Assembly: GCA_964622505.1 (NCBI GenBank)
Contig: CAZUQJ010000001.1
Span: forward strand, 116,957-180,956
Reading direction: 5' to 3'
Length of the DNA stretch: 64,000 nucleotides
Origin: an uncultured Candidatus Saccharibacteria bacterium
GTDB lineage: Bacteria > Patescibacteriota > Minisyncoccia > Phycocordibacterales > UBA9973
Part shown: in pieces, positions 2,401 to 57,374 of the stretch
Position numbering within the stretch: the first letter of the stretch is position 1
Layout: each line of letters starts with the position of its first letter
Position numbers and translations under genes: made by a program
The notes under the pieces: model-generated
The model's input: only the letters and a program-made list of their open reading frames with translations
What the model was told of the DNA's origin: nothing
The model's database searches: none

Positions 2401-5400
2401 TTGTGGTATTATGATTCTATAAATATGCATGAATATATAAAAAACATAGCTCAAAAATTTGCTCGCAATGATGTAGCAAATGGACGCGAAATGATATACC
2501 GTACTGATTTTGAGAATCTTTTGAAAGATATTTTTCAGGCTGACGGCAAGGTGACTCAAATTAATCACGACTCTACTAGTGATAATGGTAACAAGCCTGA
2601 TTTTGTAATTTCAAAAAACGGTGTACCAATTCTATATATTGAAGCAAAAGATATTGGGGTAGATCTTAATAAGATCGAAAATAGTAATCAAATGCATCGT
2701 TATTTTGGCTATGGTAACCTAATTTTGACGGATTATGTAGAATTTCGTTTTTACAGAAACGGTGAAAGATATGGAAATCCTATTAGTATTGCTAGTATTG
2801 ATAAATTAAATCGTACAATATCCGAACTTTCGCAAAACTTTTCATTACTTTCTAAAACTATTACCGACTTTGCTTCTTCTTACAAAGAGCCTATTAAAAA
2901 AGGTTCTCATTTGGCAAGAATAATGGGAGGTAAGGCAATGCGTATTCGAGATAATGTAAAAGATATGCTCCTTAGTGATAATGAAAAATTTAGTGACTTA
3001 CAAAAAATTTTGAATGTTGTGAAAGAAAATTTAGTAGCTAGTTTAGATAACGAAACATTTGCAGACATGTATGCTCAGACGTTGGTTTATGGATTGTTTG
3101 CGGCAAGATATAATGATAAATCTCCAAATGATTTTTCTCGATCAGAGGCAAGAGATCTGGTGCCTAAAACAAATCCATTTTTGAGAGAATTTTTTAATCA
3201 CATTGCTGGACCATCTTTTCCAGATAGGCTTCGTTATATTGTAGATGAACTTTGCGAAGTTTTTACACATGCAAATGTACATACACTTATGCATGAATAT
3301 TTTAAAAAAGAAAATTTATTTGGTGAAGTATATGAAAGTCCTGACCCAGTAATCCATTTTTACGAAGATTTTCTAAAAGAATATGATATAAAAAAGAAAA
3401 TGGAAATGGGAGTATTTTATACTCCACGACCTGTTGTGAGGTTTATTGTGCGAGCAGTTGATGACATTTTAAAAAATGAATTTGGTCTTGCCAGAGGTCT
3501 TGCTGATACTACAAAAATCCAAATAGAAAAAAAGGAAATTGATCAAAAAACTGGTAAAGAAAAGAAAGTCCAAAAAGAATATCATAAAGTTCAAGTTCTT
3601 GATATTGCCACAGGTACAGGTACATTCCTTAATGAGGTCATCCATAATATTTACGCAAATTTTTCTGGACAAGAAGGCCGTTGGGTATCGTATGTTGAAA
3701 ATGATTTATTGCCAAGATTACATGGTTTTGAGTTAATGATGGCATCGTATACTATTGCTCATTTGAAATTAGGTATGACCTTGTATGACACAAAGGCTGG
3801 TGATCTGAAAACTCGTCTCGGGGTTTACCTTACAAATACACTGGACGCTCCCGTAGACTACGCTAATCAAGGTAGTTTGTTTGGATTAATGGATAGTATT
3901 GCCCAGGAGAGTAAAAATGCATCTAGAATAAAATCTGAATACCCGATAATGTGTGTTATTGGCAATCCTCCATATTCAGGCATTTCAATGAATAAGCAGT
4001 ACACAGAAAATAATGATTACAAAGTTGAAATCGGTGGTAAACAAAAATTACAGGAAAAGAAAAATTGGCTCGATGATGACTATGTTAAATTTATTCGATT
4101 TGCAGAAAGCTTGATTGAGAAAAATGGTGAGGGTATAGTAGGAATGATCACCGCCCATGGCTATATAGATAACCCAACATTTCGTGGTATGCGTTGGCAT
4201 TTACGGAACACTTTTGACAAAATATATGTTTTAGACTTGCATGGTAATAGTAATAAAAAAGAAACAAGCCTTGATGGCAGCAAAGACGAAAATATTTTTG
4301 ATATTAAAACAGGTGTATCAATAATTTTGGGTATTAAAAAGCAAGGTAATATAAAAGATAAAAAATTAGCTCAAATCTACAAATCAGATTTTTATGGCCT
4401 TCGTAAAGATAAATTTAAAAATATTGAAAATGCAACTATCGATAATTTAAACTGGACAGAGCTCCCAGAAAACAGTGATTTGTGGGTATTAGAAGGAAAA
4501 GGTAAATTAGAATATAAAAAAGGTTTTTCGATGACAGAAATATTTCCCAAAAATACTACTGGTATAGTCACTATGGGGGATAGTTTTATTATCGATGAAA
4601 ATAGGGATGTTTTAACAAAAAGAATTGATGAATTTTTGCAAAATGATATATCTGAGAATGACCTAAAGCATAAATATGATTTAGGTAAAAATTACGCAAA
4701 GTGGATTATTGATAATAAAAAGAAAATCGAAAATAATCATTTAAAAATAGTACCGCTGTCGTATAGGCCTTTTGACATAAGGTATACTTATTTTGATAAA
4801 AATTTGGTATGGAGAACTAGAGGTGATGTAATGTACGGTTTAGTAAAAAAAGAAAACCTAGGCTTAGTTTTTGCTAGGTCACAAAGGAATCCTGAATTTA
4901 ATGCCGTTTTTATTTGTAACTCTATAATAGAGACCAAGTGCGGTGAAGCAAGTACTCAATCAGCTGTAGCCCCTATTTATTTATACACAGAAAACGGAGA
5001 AAAAATTTCCAACTTAAATAAAGAAATTTGGAATAAGATTAATGATGTGGTGGGTAATACTACACCCGAAGATATTTTGGATTATATTTATGCAAGTCTG
5101 CATTCGCCAAAATACCGCGAAACTTACAAAGAATTTTTAAAAATTGATTTTCCTAGAGTTCAATACCCAACTGACAAAAAAGAATTTGAAAGACTGGTAA
5201 AGCTTGGCTCAAAATTACGAGAACTTCATTTAATGACTGATCCAGAATGTGAAAATTTAATTACAACTTATTCACAATCGGGTAGTGATGTAGTAGAAAA
5301 GGTAAAATATGAAAATGGTAATGTTTATATAAACGACGCGCAGTATTTCGGCAATGTACCAGAAATTTCATGGAGTTTCTATATAGGTGGCTACCAACCT

Positions 5401-5523
5401 GCTCAAAAATACCTTAAAGACAGAAAGGGTAGAAAACTAACCAATGAAGAAATTGAGCATTATCAAAAAATCATTAAGGTATTGTTTGAAACTGATAAAT
5501 TAATGAAGGAAATAGATAAGTAG
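2401..5523 (+). CDS. Type IIG (MmeI-family) restriction-modification enzyme: an N-terminal PD-(D/E)xK nuclease fused to a gamma-class N6-adenine DNA methyltransferase and a C-terminal specificity domain. The likely true start is the Met at 2425.
   Basis: N-terminus KPDFVIS...ILYIEAKD (PD-ExK) aligns with the MmeI N-terminal layout. VLDIATGTGTFL matches MTase motif I and CVIGNPPYSG motif IV (NPPY). The protein is 1040 aa. Confidence 0.8.
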   Translation: MWYYDSINMHEYIKNIAQKFARNDVANGREMIYRTDFENLLKDIFQADGKVTQINHDSTSDNGNKPDFVISKNGVPILYIEAKDIGVDLNKIENSNQMHRYFGYGNLILTDYVEFRFYRNGERYGNPISIASIDKLNRTISELSQNFSLLSKTITDFASSYKEPIKKGSHLARIMGGKAMRIRDNVKDMLLSDNEKFSDLQKILNVVKENLVASLDNETFADMYAQTLVYGLFAARYNDKSPNDFSRSEARDLVPKTNPFLREFFNHIAGPSFPDRLRYIVDELCEVFTHANVHTLMHEYFKKENLFGEVYESPDPVIHFYEDFLKEYDIKKKMEMGVFYTPRPVVRFIVRAVDDILKNEFGLARGLADTTKIQIEKKEIDQKTGKEKKVQKEYHKVQVLDIATGTGTFLNEVIHNIYANFSGQEGRWVSYVENDLLPRLHGFELMMASYTIAHLKLGMTLYDTKAGDLKTRLGVYLTNTLDAPVDYANQGSLFGLMDSIAQESKNASRIKSEYPIMCVIGNPPYSGISMNKQYTENNDYKVEIGGKQKLQEKKNWLDDDYVKFIRFAESLIEKNGEGIVGMITAHGYIDNPTFRGMRWHLRNTFDKIYVLDLHGNSNKKETSLDGSKDENIFDIKTGVSIILGIKKQGNIKDKKLAQIYKSDFYGLRKDKFKNIENATIDNLNWTELPENSDLWVLEGKGKLEYKKGFSMTEIFPKNTTGIVTMGDSFIIDENRDVLTKRIDEFLQNDISENDLKHKYDLGKNYAKWIIDNKKKIENNHLKIVPLSYRPFDIRYTYFDKNLVWRTRGDVMYGLVKKENLGLVFARSQRNPEFNAVFICNSIIETKCGEASTQSAVAPIYLYTENGEKISNLNKEIWNKINDVVGNTTPEDILDYIYASLHSPKYRETYKEFLKIDFPRVQYPTDKKEFERLVKLGSKLRELHLMTDPECENLITTYSQSGSDVVEKVKYENGNVYINDAQYFGNVPEISWSFYIGGYQPAQKYLKDRKGRKLTNEEIEHYQKIIKVLFETDKLMKEIDK

Positions 5524-5554
5524 CTTTTCAATTTAATTATTGTAAAATATAGTA

Positions 5555-6256
5555 ATGAATTCTGAAGAGCTAAAAATTAAAGAAAATGCAGAAGAATTCG
5601 CAAGGTCGAATAAAAAGAAAATTGCGAAAGACATAATTTCTTTGTATGAATCAGAGCCGAATCCTGTTTCTGTTTTCATGGCAGGATCTCCTGGTGCAGG
5701 CAAAACAGAATCTTCGAGGTGGCTTATTAAAAAACTTACAGGGAACGACGATTCTATTTTAAGAATTGACCCTGATGAGTTGAGGAAATATTTTGAAGAA
5801 TACAACGGAAAAAATTCTAATTTATTTCAAGGTGCAACATCTATACTTGCAGAAAAAATACACGATTTTGCAATTGATGGTAGTAAGAGTTTTGTTTTTG
5901 ATACAACTTTTTCTAAATTAAATAAAGCTCAACAAAATATTAAAAGATCACTAGACCACAAAAGATCAGTCCAAATAATATATGTTTATCAAGACCCTTT
6001 GCAAGCTTGGGAATTTGTGAAGGCACGTGAATTAAAAGATGGAAGAAATGTTCCAAAAGATTCATTTATCGAAGAGTACTTTAATGCTAGAGTTGTAGTA
6101 AATCAGATAAAAAAAGATTTTCCAGATATTACATTATATATACTTATAAAGAATATTGACGGGACAACCGAGAAATATAAAGAAAATGTTGACAGTATTG
6201 ACAAATATGTTAAAGAGAACTATACTATCGATAGTTTAAATAATGTGTTACAATAA
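5555..6256 (+). CDS. Zeta-toxin-like P-loop kinase (zeta toxin / AAA_33 family)
   Basis: Walker A FMAGSPGAGKTES, followed by ILRIDPDELR and then FVFDTT. This spacing mirrors zeta/PezT. Length 233 aa; a TGtAAAAT -10-like element sits about 9 nt upstream. Confidence 0.6.
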   Translation: MNSEELKIKENAEEFARSNKKKIAKDIISLYESEPNPVSVFMAGSPGAGKTESSRWLIKKLTGNDDSILRIDPDELRKYFEEYNGKNSNLFQGATSILAEKIHDFAIDGSKSFVFDTTFSKLNKAQQNIKRSLDHKRSVQIIYVYQDPLQAWEFVKARELKDGRNVPKDSFIEEYFNARVVVNQIKKDFPDITLYILIKNIDGTTEKYKENVDSIDKYVKENYTIDSLNNVLQ

Positions 6257-15393: not shown

Positions 15394-15429
15394 TTTTTGT
15401 GTTGTTTTGGTTATCCACAGCTTTAGGGC

Positions 15430-15458
15430 TTGCATGTGAACGAGCGTTCACGTATACT
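15430..15458 (+). promoter_or_regulatory. sigma70-type promoter (TTGCAT, 17 nt, TATACT) whose entire spacer is a LexA/SOS box GTGAACGAGCGTTCAC
   Basis: Perfect GAAC-N4-GTTC inverted repeat at 15438-15449 between the -35 and -10 elements, directly upstream of the lexA operon. Confidence 0.6.
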
Positions 15459-15464
15459 AGTTAC

Positions 15465-15674
15465 ATGAGCAAGGAACAATATATCAAAATTTTACAAAGA
15501 GAATTGATCAAGATCAACAAGGAGATCGACATGCGGATCATGGCTGGCGAGGCATATACCAAGCAAGCTCGCGACCACAAATTGCTCCTCCGCAAGATCC
15601 ACAACCATTACCACAAGAATTCCTTCAAGGGTCTCTTTGCCAAAATGTTCTCTGTGTCTCGTTTCCAATACTAA
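15465..15674 (+). CDS. Small coiled-coil protein (69 aa from the internal Met), first gene of the lexA operon. It is a candidate SOS-regulated factor.
   Basis: ORF lies between the SOS-box promoter and lexA and ends 5 nt before the lexA ATG. The ORF-track start 15399 (GTG) would place the SOS box inside the coding sequence. Confidence 0.4.
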   Translation: MSKEQYIKILQRELIKINKEIDMRIMAGEAYTKQARDHKLLLRKIHNHYHKNSFKGLFAKMFSVSRFQY

Positions 15675-15679
15675 TATAT

Positions 15680-16249
15680 ATGACACTCTCTGAATACAAA
15701 AATAAACTCGCAAATTTCCACTCATCTTCCAACAGGATGCCAACTTATACAGAGATGATGAAGCTCTTTGATTTCAAATCAAAGAACGCTGTCGCTCGAC
15801 TCGTAGAGAAGCTAGTAGATGCTGGTATTGTAGACAAGGACCCACTTGGCCGACTTGTACCTACCGATTCATTTTCAGATGTGCCACTCCTCGGACTTGT
15901 CAAAGCTGGATTTCCTTCGCCAAGCGAAGAGGTGCTCGAAACTACAATCAACCTCAACAACTTCCTTATTCAAAAGAAAGAAAAGACATATATACTGGAA
16001 GTTGATGGTGACTCAATGATCGACGCCCATATTGCTGATGGAGATATGGTGGTAGCAGAGCGCACAGAGAATGCTCGCGACGGGCAGATCGTGATAGCAG
16101 AAGTTGATGGGGAATATACCATGAAATATTTTCGCAAACTGGGCGCACGCATATGGCTTGAGCCAGCCAACAAAGATTTCAGTAATATTTACCCCGAGAA
16201 TGATCTTAAAATTTGCGCAGTCGTAAAAGGAGTGATTCGGAAATATTAA
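15680..16249 (+). CDS. lexA: LexA repressor (S24 peptidase)
   Basis: N-terminal winged-helix region; GDSM serine motif; AEVDGEYTMKYF with the catalytic Lys; 189 aa. Confidence 0.85.
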   Translation: MTLSEYKNKLANFHSSSNRMPTYTEMMKLFDFKSKNAVARLVEKLVDAGIVDKDPLGRLVPTDSFSDVPLLGLVKAGFPSPSEEVLETTINLNNFLIQKKEKTYILEVDGDSMIDAHIADGDMVVAERTENARDGQIVIAEVDGEYTMKYFRKLGARIWLEPANKDFSNIYPENDLKICAVVKGVIRKY

Positions 16250-16362: not shown

Positions 16363-16372
16363 TTTTTTAAAA

Positions 16373-16403
16373 AATCCTCAAGCAAAACTTGAGGATTTTT
16401 TGT
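16373..16403 (+). terminator. Rho-independent terminator
   Basis: aatcctcaag-caaaa-cttgaggatt followed by T6. Confidence 0.65.
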
Positions 16404-37155: not shown

Positions 37156-38256
37156 TTAATTCTTTTTTTGGAAACGAGAAACGTTGAGGATTATGCCCAT
37201 GGCGCCGAGGGTTATTAGTAGAGAGGTGCCACCGTGGCTGATGAATGGTAGAGGTACACCCGTCAGTGGGAATACGCCAATAATCGAGGCGATGTTCATA
37301 AATGCTTGTGTGAGTGTGATTGTAATGAGTCCAATAGCTAGTAATTTGGAAAATGAGTCAGGTGCGTAATATCCAATTTTGAATCCACGAAATGCAAAAA
37401 TAATAAACAAGAGAATAATAGCAACTGTGCCGATAAAACCTGTTTCCTCTCCTATAACAGCAAAGATCGAGTCGCCTTGAGGTTCTGGTAAGTAACTGTA
37501 CTTCTGTATACTTTGGCCCAATCCCCTGCCAAAGATCCCTCCGGAGCCGATAGCGATCAGTGATTGCTGTAGTTGGTACGATGCCCCACTTTGGTTCTGG
37601 CTTGGGTGCAGGAATGTATTTACACGGCTCTTCAAATAAGGAGTCACTGAAACAAGTATTCCAAATCCAACGATACTAATAACAAAAATTCCTAAAATAT
37701 ATTTCCATGGCATACCAGAGATGAAGAGCATAACCATAGCAGTTGTTGCGATCAGAATGACACTCTTTGTGTCGGGTTGCTTGAGTAGTACAAGTGCAAT
37801 AACTCCAAGTAATAATAAGAGTGGGATAATACTGAACTTCATATCACGGACTTTTGTCTTGACCCAAGAAAGCCATGCAGCAAAATAAATAACAAAAGCG
37901 ATTTTTAGGAATTCTACCGGTTGAAATGATATACCAAAAATATTAATCCAGCGCTGTGCTCCTCCGTGACTAAATCCAATCTTTGGAACAAAAACTAAGC
38001 ATGTAATAAGTATAGAAATGATGAAGATCGTTAGTGAATATGTCCGCCAAAATTTGTATGGGATACGATATGCACAATACATAGCGATCCCCCCACCAAG
38101 TAGTCCAAAAAGGAATTGATTGAAGATTACGTCGTAGAATTTGGCAGGATTCTTTGCCAAGATTCCAAGCGATGCTGAAGTAAACATAACCACGCCGACT
38201 ACAACGAGCGTGACAATAAGACCAAAAAATATTTTATCAATGTTTTTTTCTTTCAT
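37156..38256 (-). CDS. ftsW: SEDS-family peptidoglycan glycosyltransferase FtsW/RodA
   Basis: 10-TM SEDS architecture; lies between murG and mraY. Confidence 0.8.
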   Translation of the reverse strand: MKEKNIDKIFFGLIVTLVVVGVVMFTSASLGILAKNPAKFYDVIFNQFLFGLLGGGIAMYCAYRIPYKFWRTYSLTIFIISILITCLVFVPKIGFSHGGAQRWINIFGISFQPVEFLKIAFVIYFAAWLSWVKTKVRDMKFSIIPLLLLLGVIALVLLKQPDTKSVILIATTAMVMLFISGMPWKYILGIFVISIVGFGILVSVTPYLKSRVNTFLHPSQNQSGASYQLQQSLIAIGSGGIFGRGLGQSIQKYSYLPEPQGDSIFAVIGEETGFIGTVAIILLFIIFAFRGFKIGYYAPDSFSKLLAIGLITITLTQAFMNIASIIGVFPLTGVPLPFISHGGTSLLITLGAMGIILNVSRFQKKN

Positions 38257-46290: not shown

Positions 46291-46305
46291 TTTTATGCAC
46301 ATTTT
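46291..46305. repeat. 15-bp direct repeat TTTTATGCACATTTT, copy 2
   Basis: Exact match to 43692-43706. Lies in the divergent promoter region between the cassette and dnaB. Confidence 0.6.
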
Positions 46306-46366
46306 ACCCACAGAGTTGTTCGATAAATGGAATTTGGCAATTTGTAATCTGTGTTAGAATAGACCC

Positions 46367-47752
46367 ATGGCAGATAAAAAATCATTACGAATTCCTCCAC
46401 AAAGTTTGGATTCCGAGAAAGCTATTCTCGGCTCTATTATGCTCCGTCCTGGAGCATTGCACGAAATCAGTGACATGATCTCTGATCGCTCTTTTTACGC
46501 AGGCAAGCACTCTCAGATTTATAAGGTGATGGGCGAACTTTCCAATAAAGGCGAACCGATCGACTTGATCTCTGTATCACAAAAATTGTCTGAAAAAGGA
46601 ATGCTTGATTCTATTGGTGGTACAAGCTATCTGACTGATCTTGTGAATTCTGTCCCCTCTTCTACAAACGTAAAACACTATTCGGATATTGTCGACAAGA
46701 AGCATATCTTACGAAATATTATTGACGCTGGTAACGATGTCTCCGAACTTGGCTTCAAAGAAGACGTTGAGGATATATATGAAGTCCTCAACAGTGCCGA
46801 AAAAAGAATGATGGAAATCCGTGATCCACTTAAGGGCCATGAGTATTATGCTTTGAAGGATACCTTGCCAGAAGCTTGGGAGCGTTTGGAACGTTTGCAT
46901 GAAAGCAAGGGCGAGCTCCGCGGAGTGCCAACAGGATTTAAAGACTTGGACCAATATCTTTCAGGGCTTCAAAATTCAGACCTCATTATTCTCGCAGCGC
47001 GTCCATCTGTGGGAAAGACAACACTAGCACTCGATTTCGCGCGTAATGCTGCGACAAAAAATAATGTTTCAACTGTCATCTTCTCTCTCGAAATGAGTTC
47101 ACAGCAACTTGTAGACAGAATGCTCTCTGCGGAGTCCAAGGTGAATGCGTGGAATTTGCGTACTGGAAACTTGTCTGCCGAAAAAGAATTTACTAAAATT
47201 CGTGACTCGCTCGATCGCCTCGCAAAGGCACCAATATTTATCGATGACCAAGCCGGCAATTCTATTGCTCGTATGCGTTCAGTTTGTCGCCGTGTAAAGG
47301 CAAGTAATGGTATCGGCCTTGTTATTGTTGACTACTTACAGCTCATGTCGACTTCCAAAAATTATGACAGTATGGTCAACCAAGTTACCGATATATCTCG
47401 ATCGCTCAAAGCATTGGCAAAGGAATTCAATGTACCAGTAGTAGCACTTTCCCAGCTCTCTCGTGCTGTGGAGGCTCGTGGTGGACGCCCTCGCCTATCC
47501 GACTTGCGTGACTCTGGATCTATCGAACAAGACGCCGATGTTGTGATGTTTATTCACCGCGAGGATAAAGGCAAGGATGAAAGCGAGCGCACAAATATTG
47601 CAGAAATTTTAATCGAGAAGCACCGTAACGGACCTGTTGGAAAGGTTGATTTGTATTTCGATGACAAGACCACAAGCTTCCTTAATATTGAAAAGAGTAG
47701 TCTTGATAGCTTTGCACCATCTCAGGCTGATAGTGGTATGGATGCATTTTAA
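46367..47752 (+). CDS. dnaB: Replicative DNA helicase DnaB
   Basis: N-terminal DnaB domain; Walker A ARPSVGKTT; RecA-like C-terminus; 461 aa. Confidence 0.9.
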   Translation: MADKKSLRIPPQSLDSEKAILGSIMLRPGALHEISDMISDRSFYAGKHSQIYKVMGELSNKGEPIDLISVSQKLSEKGMLDSIGGTSYLTDLVNSVPSSTNVKHYSDIVDKKHILRNIIDAGNDVSELGFKEDVEDIYEVLNSAEKRMMEIRDPLKGHEYYALKDTLPEAWERLERLHESKGELRGVPTGFKDLDQYLSGLQNSDLIILAARPSVGKTTLALDFARNAATKNNVSTVIFSLEMSSQQLVDRMLSAESKVNAWNLRTGNLSAEKEFTKIRDSLDRLAKAPIFIDDQAGNSIARMRSVCRRVKASNGIGLVIVDYLQLMSTSKNYDSMVNQVTDISRSLKALAKEFNVPVVALSQLSRAVEARGGRPRLSDLRDSGSIEQDADVVMFIHREDKGKDESERTNIAEILIEKHRNGPVGKVDLYFDDKTTSFLNIEKSSLDSFAPSQADSGMDAF

Positions 47753-57140: not shown

Positions 57141-57374
57141 TTTGTTTGATATTTAATTATTAAAGAACAAAAAAAACGACCATTTGAGGTCGCTTTTGAA
57201 AATTCGTATTTGAATTTTAGGAGATTTAATTTATTACACAAATACTCTCAAGCGCCCTCAAATTGTGAGTCGCTCGTCGTCGATTACTTATTTGTATTTG
57301 TGCATGAATATGATTCATAATATGTTTATAACACTTGCCAAAATGCAAGTCAAATGGTCTATTGTGGATAACTT

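Follow-up and report, generated by a model that had tools for sequence, protein, structure and literature searches.

The stretch of DNA analyzed here, 64,000 nt long and called the window throughout, carries a lexA operon in which lexA is preceded by a small open reading frame (ORF) encoding a 69-aa protein. By sequence comparison the source is a Patescibacteria (Paceibacteria/'Parcubacteria'-type) bacterium and the locus is an autoregulated lexA operon, with a putative LexA operator (SOS box) inside the promoter and a putative DnaA operator just upstream of it. The anatomy of the locus, its conservation, the coding status of the small ORF and its linkage to lexA are direct observations from the sequence and its relatives, and we consider the regulatory architecture well supported and very likely correct. 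An overall explanation of the operon, which would give the small protein a checkpoint function, is offered more tentatively, as the best of those weighed below and as somewhat short of probable.

The evidence for the SOS box is its conservation. Among 77 distinct promoters from related loci, the box always has a TTG-type -35 on one side and a TATA[AC]T -10 hexamer on the other, with 12 of the 14 specified positions of GTGAACG-N2-CGTTCAC invariant and the other two retained in at least 72 promoters. A GAAC-N4-GTTC palindrome that overlaps the promoter and is conserved in this way identifies the site as a Gram-positive-type (Cheo) SOS box. By itself the occurrence of the core has no significance: the window holds one GAAC-N4-GTTC where 0.64 would be expected, and at least one match arises in 46 of 100 shuffles. 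The box also accompanies the small-ORF gene family-wide, because many database entries have mis-called long N-termini reading '..ERSFTYT..', which is the SOS box in translation. No further SOS box was found in the window at up to three mismatches except one chance-level match, and the flanks of 97 loci contained no other copy, so that a wider regulon was not found.

An earlier reading of this DNA, made from the sequence alone and referred to here as the sequence-only reading, had described a textbook promoter with a LexA operator in its spacer. The hexamers and the operator are present at the coordinates it gave (Table 1), the palindrome taking up all but one base of the spacer, and comparative conservation supports a LexA operator in the promoter spacer of the small ORF-lexA operon. 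"Textbook" overstates the -35, TTGCAT, which agrees with TTGACA at only three of six positions; a consensus promoter scan did not list the lexA-operon promoter. Across the 77 promoters the -10 is nearly invariant and the -35 is conserved only as TTG, variants in relatives being TTGACT, TTGCAA, TTGACA, and TTGTAT.

The small ORF is a real gene, because substitutions fall mainly at third codon positions and because its family comprises many clusters. Differences by codon position number 8/6/29 between the window copy and that of one relative (L001) and 2783/1709/4355 over all pairs. A word-indexed search returned six relatives of the protein at 65-72% identity, and an exhaustive search with a profile hidden Markov model recovered 168 representative clusters at 50% identity, nearly all of 60-70 aa and aligning from residue 1. 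Seven residues (M1, N18, I21, D22, I25, Y31, and H38) are invariant in 88 sequences with identities down to 23%. The closest copies come from assemblies of 'Candidatus Nomurabacteria', Parcubacteria, Paceibacterota, and Taylorbacteria, and all database copies are named 'hypothetical protein'. The sequence-only reading had proposed this ORF, ending 5 nt before lexA, as an SOS-induced factor that would fall if the ORF lacked conservation or coding signal. It was found at the coordinates given, the codon signature and the family both bear it out, and comparative evidence supports a genuine SOS-controlled factor.

Two other readings of the ORF were considered. An alternative GTG start at 15399, raised in the same reading as a possible objection, is not conserved, and most relatives have an in-frame stop between the box and the ATG; the SOS box is therefore not intragenic. 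A phage origin is unsupported, no relative being present in 2.9 million viral contigs.

By its sequence, the 189-aa protein encoded downstream is a canonical LexA repressor. It scores 128.9 bits against NCBIfam TIGR00498 (equivalog cut-off 110.95, alignment covering residues 16-188) and matches Peptidase_S24 at 1.9e-27; the match to the N-terminal domain PF01726 is weak (15.1 bits vs a cut-off of 23.7). The cleavage site VKA76-G77 and the catalytic dyad GDS112M and TMK149 are present and invariant in nine orthologues, and LexA proteins across related loci share 53-80% identity with that of the window (alignment A4).

Linkage between the two genes was followed in both directions. Searching from the small ORF, all 13 species-representative genome loci carry the same promoter and 11 have a full lexA downstream; L001 shows the start of lexA only, and the L012 contig ends before the gene. 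All four distant members examined (27-31% identity to the window protein, alignment A3) also stand directly upstream of an S24/LexA gene, with otherwise unrelated neighbors. The promoter-operator-small ORF-lexA arrangement is seen in 17 loci found via the small ORF, with full lexA in 15. Starting from lexA and restricting the count to metagenome loci with at least 300 nt upstream, a family member lies immediately upstream in 66 of 67, the exception (L026) being a degraded copy. The gaps between the genes are mostly -11 to +12 nt, A/T-rich and without a Shine-Dalgarno sequence, and are no longer than 12 nt in about two-thirds of relatives. A LexA-controlled gene adjacent to lexA is also characteristic of the YneA, ChiZ, and SosA type of inhibitor, and the small ORF is predicted to be such a gene. 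In the explanation favored below, the lexA module of this Patescibacteria lineage would have the small protein as its dedicated partner.

Near-obligate linkage on the same strand with gaps mostly of 12 nt or less is the pattern expected of stoichiometric partners. It is possible, if rather unlikely, that under the same regulation the small protein modulates the LexA/RecA switch itself instead of acting as a downstream effector, either by binding LexA as a co-repressor or cleavage modulator, in the manner of phage GIL01 gp7 or of Acinetobacter DdrR with UmuDAb, or as a RecA-filament regulator like DinI or RecX. The first cistron of an autoregulated operon would be co-produced with LexA even in unstressed cells, the invariant polar residues N18, D22, Y31, and H38 of the highly conserved hairpin imply a conserved binding partner, as LexA, itself highly conserved, could be, and a strong positive charge would suit DNA contact beside the operator. 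However, no similarity to DinI, RecX, gp7, or another known family was found, and such a role leaves the non-polar C-terminal tail without an obvious purpose.

Several relatives vary this layout. In L011 (2148-4456) the operon runs from the small ORF through lexA to a umuD-like S24 protein (110 aa) and a Y-family polymerase (416 aa), and a GC-rich 129-nt insert separates the small ORF from lexA; the insert of L002 and L003 is a different one of ~137 nt. Rfam has no match in the window or in the L011 and L012 inserts. The spacer of L014 (3207-3246) is a tandem hexamer repeat of about five CATTTC copies directly before the lexA ATG, a tract that is possibly slippage-prone. Loci L023, L030, and L046 have a second small ORF of ~63 aa between the family member and lexA (e.g., MRTTPFQQLVSSEIERIRTVV...KGFLARVLGN); this second ORF, which ends in a similar tail, may be a diverged duplicate.

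The second putative operator, the 9-mer TTATCCACA, was missed by the sequence-only reading, as was the leaderless geometry described below. It corresponds exactly to the DnaA-box consensus (PMC8203912) and, in 17 of 18 loci, is found a short distance upstream of the -35, where the remaining locus has one mismatch. Although the window has only two exact copies, 69 of the 72 distinct occurrences in 377 kb (window plus related loci) are at the lexA-operon promoter and in the same orientation. Its distance to the SOS box is 17-18 nt in 8 promoters, 25-28 nt in 57 and 36 nt in 3, with none in between. Such steps of about one helical turn are expected of a protein that stays on a single face of the DNA while touching RNA polymerase or LexA. 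Taking 15465 as the transcription start, the box centers would lie near -41, -50, and -60, positions typical of activators. The protein bound at TTATCCACA may be DnaA. A consistent second DnaA-like box upstream of the main one was not found. Proximity to oriC was considered and rejected, since neighboring genes differ between loci and the window contains neither dnaA nor oriC.

Other DnaA-box-like sequences were noted. The second window copy of TTATCCACA (57363-57371, - strand) shares the geometry of the lexA-operon promoter, being followed after 9 nt by TTGACT (57353-48), 17 nt, TATAAA (57330-25), 6 nt, and ATG 57318. In this region (57371-57169, - strand) the promoter would serve either a leaderless ORF of 30 aa, MNHIHAQIQISNRRRATHNLRALESICVIN, whose end is at 57226, or an RNA of ~150 nt that stops at a hairpin and T-run at ~57194-57169; the site has no SOS box and no Rfam match. 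Upstream of dnaB-recR on the + strand, two adjacent DnaA-box-like 9-mers, TTATGCACA (46293-46301) and TTACCCACA (46304-46312), precede TAGAAT (46355-60), 6 nt, and ATG 46367, and dnaB may be a second DnaA-regulated gene. One of the three copies of TTATCCACA outside lexA promoters lies 5 nt upstream of TTGCAT in L015 (~1262-1320, - strand), where the spacer has a different palindrome (CACATAGTACTATGTG) and the promoter precedes a PadR-family gene.

The -10 of the lexA operon ends 6 nt before ATG 15465, a spacing that implies a leaderless mRNA. The same distance occurs in L001-3, L014, L016, and L017 and in 9 of the 77 promoters, distant ones included. Leaderless initiation appears to be normal in this genome, since about half of the window ORFs (49 of at least 150 aa surveyed) have a -10-like hexamer, TANNNT, ending 3-9 nt and mostly 6-8 nt before the start codon, and a Shine-Dalgarno-like motif was found in only 1 of the 49. 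Many of these hexamers are TATAAT-like with TG in front. The small ORF is therefore probably translated from a leaderless mRNA, and lexA, which has no Shine-Dalgarno sequence and starts just past the small ORF stop, is probably translated by coupling to it. Relatives with a 40-90-nt leader (L004, L005, L010, L011, L012, and L094) have a conserved GGTCGCTTTA ~8-10 nt after the -10. L011 and L012 still have an ATG at the ancestral leaderless position, where it opens a 7-codon mini-ORF (MVALVIV).

This layout of a leaderless first cistron, very short gaps, and a Shine-Dalgarno-less lexA would also be produced by an ORF serving mainly as a translational leader that delivers ribosomes to lexA, its peptide having no function of its own. 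We consider this very improbable given the strong purifying selection that keeps seven residues invariant across the 88 sequences, the conserved length and C-terminal character of the protein, and the retention of the ORF in loci with gaps of 129-215 nt before lexA.

The transcription unit probably ends at a hairpin and T-run, the first terminator-like structure past lexA (Table 1); on the + strand there is no terminator-like site between the promoter and the lexA stop. Between lexA and this hairpin is a very basic 21-aa micro-ORF. Near-identical peptides are found in L002, L003, L004, L012, and L013 at varying positions relative to lexA, which indicates a conserved independent micro-gene.

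Table 1. Positions of the features of the lexA operon in the window
Feature	Position	Strand	Remarks
DnaA-box 9-mer TTATCCACA (putative DnaA operator)	15411-15419	+	10 nt upstream of -35; perfect consensus match
-35 hexamer TTGCAT	15430-15435	+	3/6 match to TTGACA; TTG kept in relatives
SOS box GTGAACGAGCGTTCAC (putative LexA operator)	15436-15451	.	16-nt 7+2+7 palindrome; 16/17 spacer bases
Spacer GTGAACGAGCGTTCACG	15436-15452		17 nt, between -35 and -10
GAAC-N4-GTTC core	15438-15449		inside the 16-bp palindrome
-10 hexamer TATACT	15453-15458	+	predicted transcription start: the A of ATG 15465 or an adjacent base
Small ORF, 69 aa, first cistron	15465-15674	+	ATG 15465, TAA 15672-15674; coding signature, family search
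lexA, 189 aa	15680-16249	+	probable winged-helix N-domain, and S24 autoprotease; 5-nt gap (tatat) after small ORF stop
Micro-ORF MGKGDNRQRKEVKKPKKVVKK, 21 aa	16297-16362	+	very basic; between lexA and terminator hairpin; TATAAT at 16260-65
Hairpin and T-run (probable terminator)	16370-16400	+	RNAfold -15.2 kcal/mol, 13-bp stem

An AlphaFold2 model of the small protein, built with 88 sequences, has helices at residues 3-27 and 32-51, with a predicted local distance difference test score above 90 over residues 3-51, and a further helix at 55-65 of low confidence. What the sequence-only reading called a "coiled coil" is better described as an antiparallel helical hairpin, across which D22 would face H38. 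Family members are strongly basic, with a net charge of ~+8 on ~66 residues. Their C-terminal tail is hydrophobic/basic, and of 200 members surveyed 90% end in F, L, A, Y, I, or V. None of these 200 has a transmembrane segment (19-residue window, mean Kyte-Doolittle hydropathy >1.6), and the signal for an amphipathic helix in the tail was only modest (mean z 0.8), so that no membrane-targeting helix is claimed.

Family searches gave no identification. In Pfam, the window protein and 111 family members returned only sub-threshold coiled-coil noise (its one recurrent family being DegS, in 8 of the 111, best E 0.004), without a LysM match and, among the 111, without a SulA domain match at E <=0.05. 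The DinI, RecX, and Sda families were matched neither in Pfam nor in a profile search against Protein Data Bank (PDB) sequences, which returned nothing for the small-protein family. NCBIfam had no match for the protein, PHROGs provided no identification (an unnamed family was matched at E 0.0045, by 2 of the 88 sequences), and fold searches returned generic helical matches only.

The basic charge and the conserved DnaA box in its own promoter raise the possibility of a damage-induced nucleic-acid-binding or replication-control factor, e.g., an inhibitor of DnaA-dependent initiation with feedback through the DnaA box, or a protector of DNA or RNA. There is precedent in Bacillus subtilis Sda, a DnaA-controlled small helical-hairpin checkpoint protein (PMC8203912). 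We consider such a role unlikely, as the family has no sequence relation to Sda, YabA, SirA, or nucleoid proteins, a helical hairpin is not a recognized DNA-binding fold, and the structural matches are generic.

The mechanism that we favor would operate as follows. A LexA dimer would occupy the 16-bp GTGAACG-N2-CGTTCAC site and, by filling the spacer between the -35 and the -10, exclude RNA polymerase. Following DNA damage, RecA-stimulated self-cleavage of LexA, for which Ala76-Gly77, Ser112, and Lys149 are present, would free the promoter. Transcription would then begin at about the A of ATG 15465 and yield a leaderless mRNA, with the basic helical-hairpin protein as its first product and lexA translated afterwards by coupling. 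The single DnaA box on one helix face would add an input from the replication initiator, allowing the operon to integrate replication status and DNA damage. The small protein would act as a checkpoint effector of the SOS response, imposing a transient block on cell division or the cell cycle, and its non-polar tail would provide membrane or partner contact and/or a means of rapid proteolytic removal.

The function of the small protein is the least direct of these steps. We favor a checkpoint because SOS division inhibitors recur next to lexA and because the tail suits proteolytic control, but the role of checkpoint or division inhibitor, the latter suggested by analogy in the sequence-only reading, is possible rather than probable and about as plausible as that of a LexA/RecA partner. 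Several observations weigh against the favored explanation. The protein lacks a transmembrane segment, LysM, SulA, or any other domain, as well as the features that define SulA, YneA, or SosA, and so matches no known division inhibitor. As the product of the first cistron of lexA's operon it would be made at or above the basal level of LexA in unstressed cells. Such synthesis sits uneasily with a toxic inhibitor, unless degradation is rapid, and suits a constitutive LexA partner as well or better. The net charge suggests nucleic-acid binding. The promoter has a weak -35 and only a single DnaA box, DnaA usually acting through several, and the spacing classes of that box may come partly from shared ancestry of the loci.

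Three features appear to be new, namely a conserved small-protein family that forms an obligatory first cistron, a DnaA box at the promoter of lexA itself, and the leaderless and coupled layout. Autoregulation of lexA through a Gram-positive-type box in Patescibacteria has reportedly been described already, as Sanchez-Osuna, Barbe and Erill are reported to have found in 2017 a LexA motif of this type and autoregulation of lexA in the phylum. Full-text searches on LexA in the Candidate Phyla Radiation (CPR) or Parcubacteria turned up nothing relevant. It can be speculated, with considerable doubt, that the small protein belongs to a new Patescibacteria-specific class of cell-cycle/SOS regulator, a basic helical hairpin made from a leaderless mRNA under joint control of LexA (damage) and DnaA (replication status), and acting by direct contact with LexA/RecA or with the divisome or replisome.

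A large part of bacterial diversity belongs to the Patescibacteria, whose cell-cycle control is almost uncharted. If the speculation of a new regulator class is true, the small protein would give the CPR its first described checkpoint effector, and the promoter would be the first of a lexA gene shown to be wired to DnaA. A functional DnaA box would make lexA expression itself responsive to replication status, and we know of no lexA promoter with such wiring described. The locus provides a concrete, testable candidate, an unannotated family of 60-70-aa proteins (at least 168 clusters at 50% identity) that is co-inherited with lexA and lies behind a damage operator, apparently together with one for the replication initiator. 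With a promoter of 90 bp and a protein of 69 aa, the parts lend themselves to heterologous tests. The locus also illustrates leaderless first cistrons and Shine-Dalgarno-free coupling as a form of operon organization in this lineage.

Elsewhere the window carries ordinary chromosomal genes, namely ftsW (37156-38256), murG, mraY, scpAB, dnaB (46367-47752), recR, and several aminoacyl-tRNA synthetases. At 2401-6256 (+ strand) lies a possible defense or addiction island, with a Type ISP restriction-modification enzyme (1040 aa) and, after it, a zeta-toxin-family kinase (233 aa).

Among known systems, the lexA-sulA operon of Pseudomonas aeruginosa has a putative checkpoint gene co-transcribed with lexA from an autoregulated promoter. 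Co-transcription with lexA is common to both loci, but the order is reversed, sulA lying downstream there, and the small protein has no SulA match. Linked proteins of ~50-80 aa that modulate LexA-like repressors are gp7 of phage GIL01, acting with LexA, and Acinetobacter DdrR, acting with UmuDAb. The small protein resembles these in size and in linkage to a repressor but is not homologous to them.

Lineage-specific SOS division inhibitors adjoin lexA in Bacillus, Listeria, Staphylococcus, Mycobacterium, and Corynebacterium (PMC6851548). Like B. subtilis yneA, Staphylococcus aureus sosA, Mycobacterium tuberculosis chiZ, and Corynebacterium glutamicum divS, the small ORF is a small lineage-specific neighbor of lexA with a GAAC-N4-GTTC-type LexA box, and these lexA-adjacent inhibitors likewise show no sequence similarity between lineages (PMC6851548). 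In contrast, those four genes are divergent from lexA whereas the small ORF is the upstream cistron of lexA's own operon, and their products are single-pass membrane proteins, often with LysM, whereas the protein here has neither a transmembrane segment nor LysM.

The predicted control of a single promoter through both a DnaA box and a LexA box, which would tie the SOS response to replication status, has a parallel in the Escherichia coli uvrB, recN, and dinJ promoters, which are co-regulated by DnaA and LexA (PMC6015884; PMC8203912). In E. coli, several DnaA boxes overlap the LexA sites and DnaA represses, whereas here a single consensus box lies upstream of the -35 at lexA's own promoter, phased and in an activator-like position. 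B. subtilis Sda is neither LexA-controlled nor linked to lexA, targets sporulation kinases, and has no sequence similarity to the small protein, but it too is a very small helical hairpin with a DnaA-box promoter, and it serves as a checkpoint by protein-protein binding under replication or damage stress (PMC8203912).

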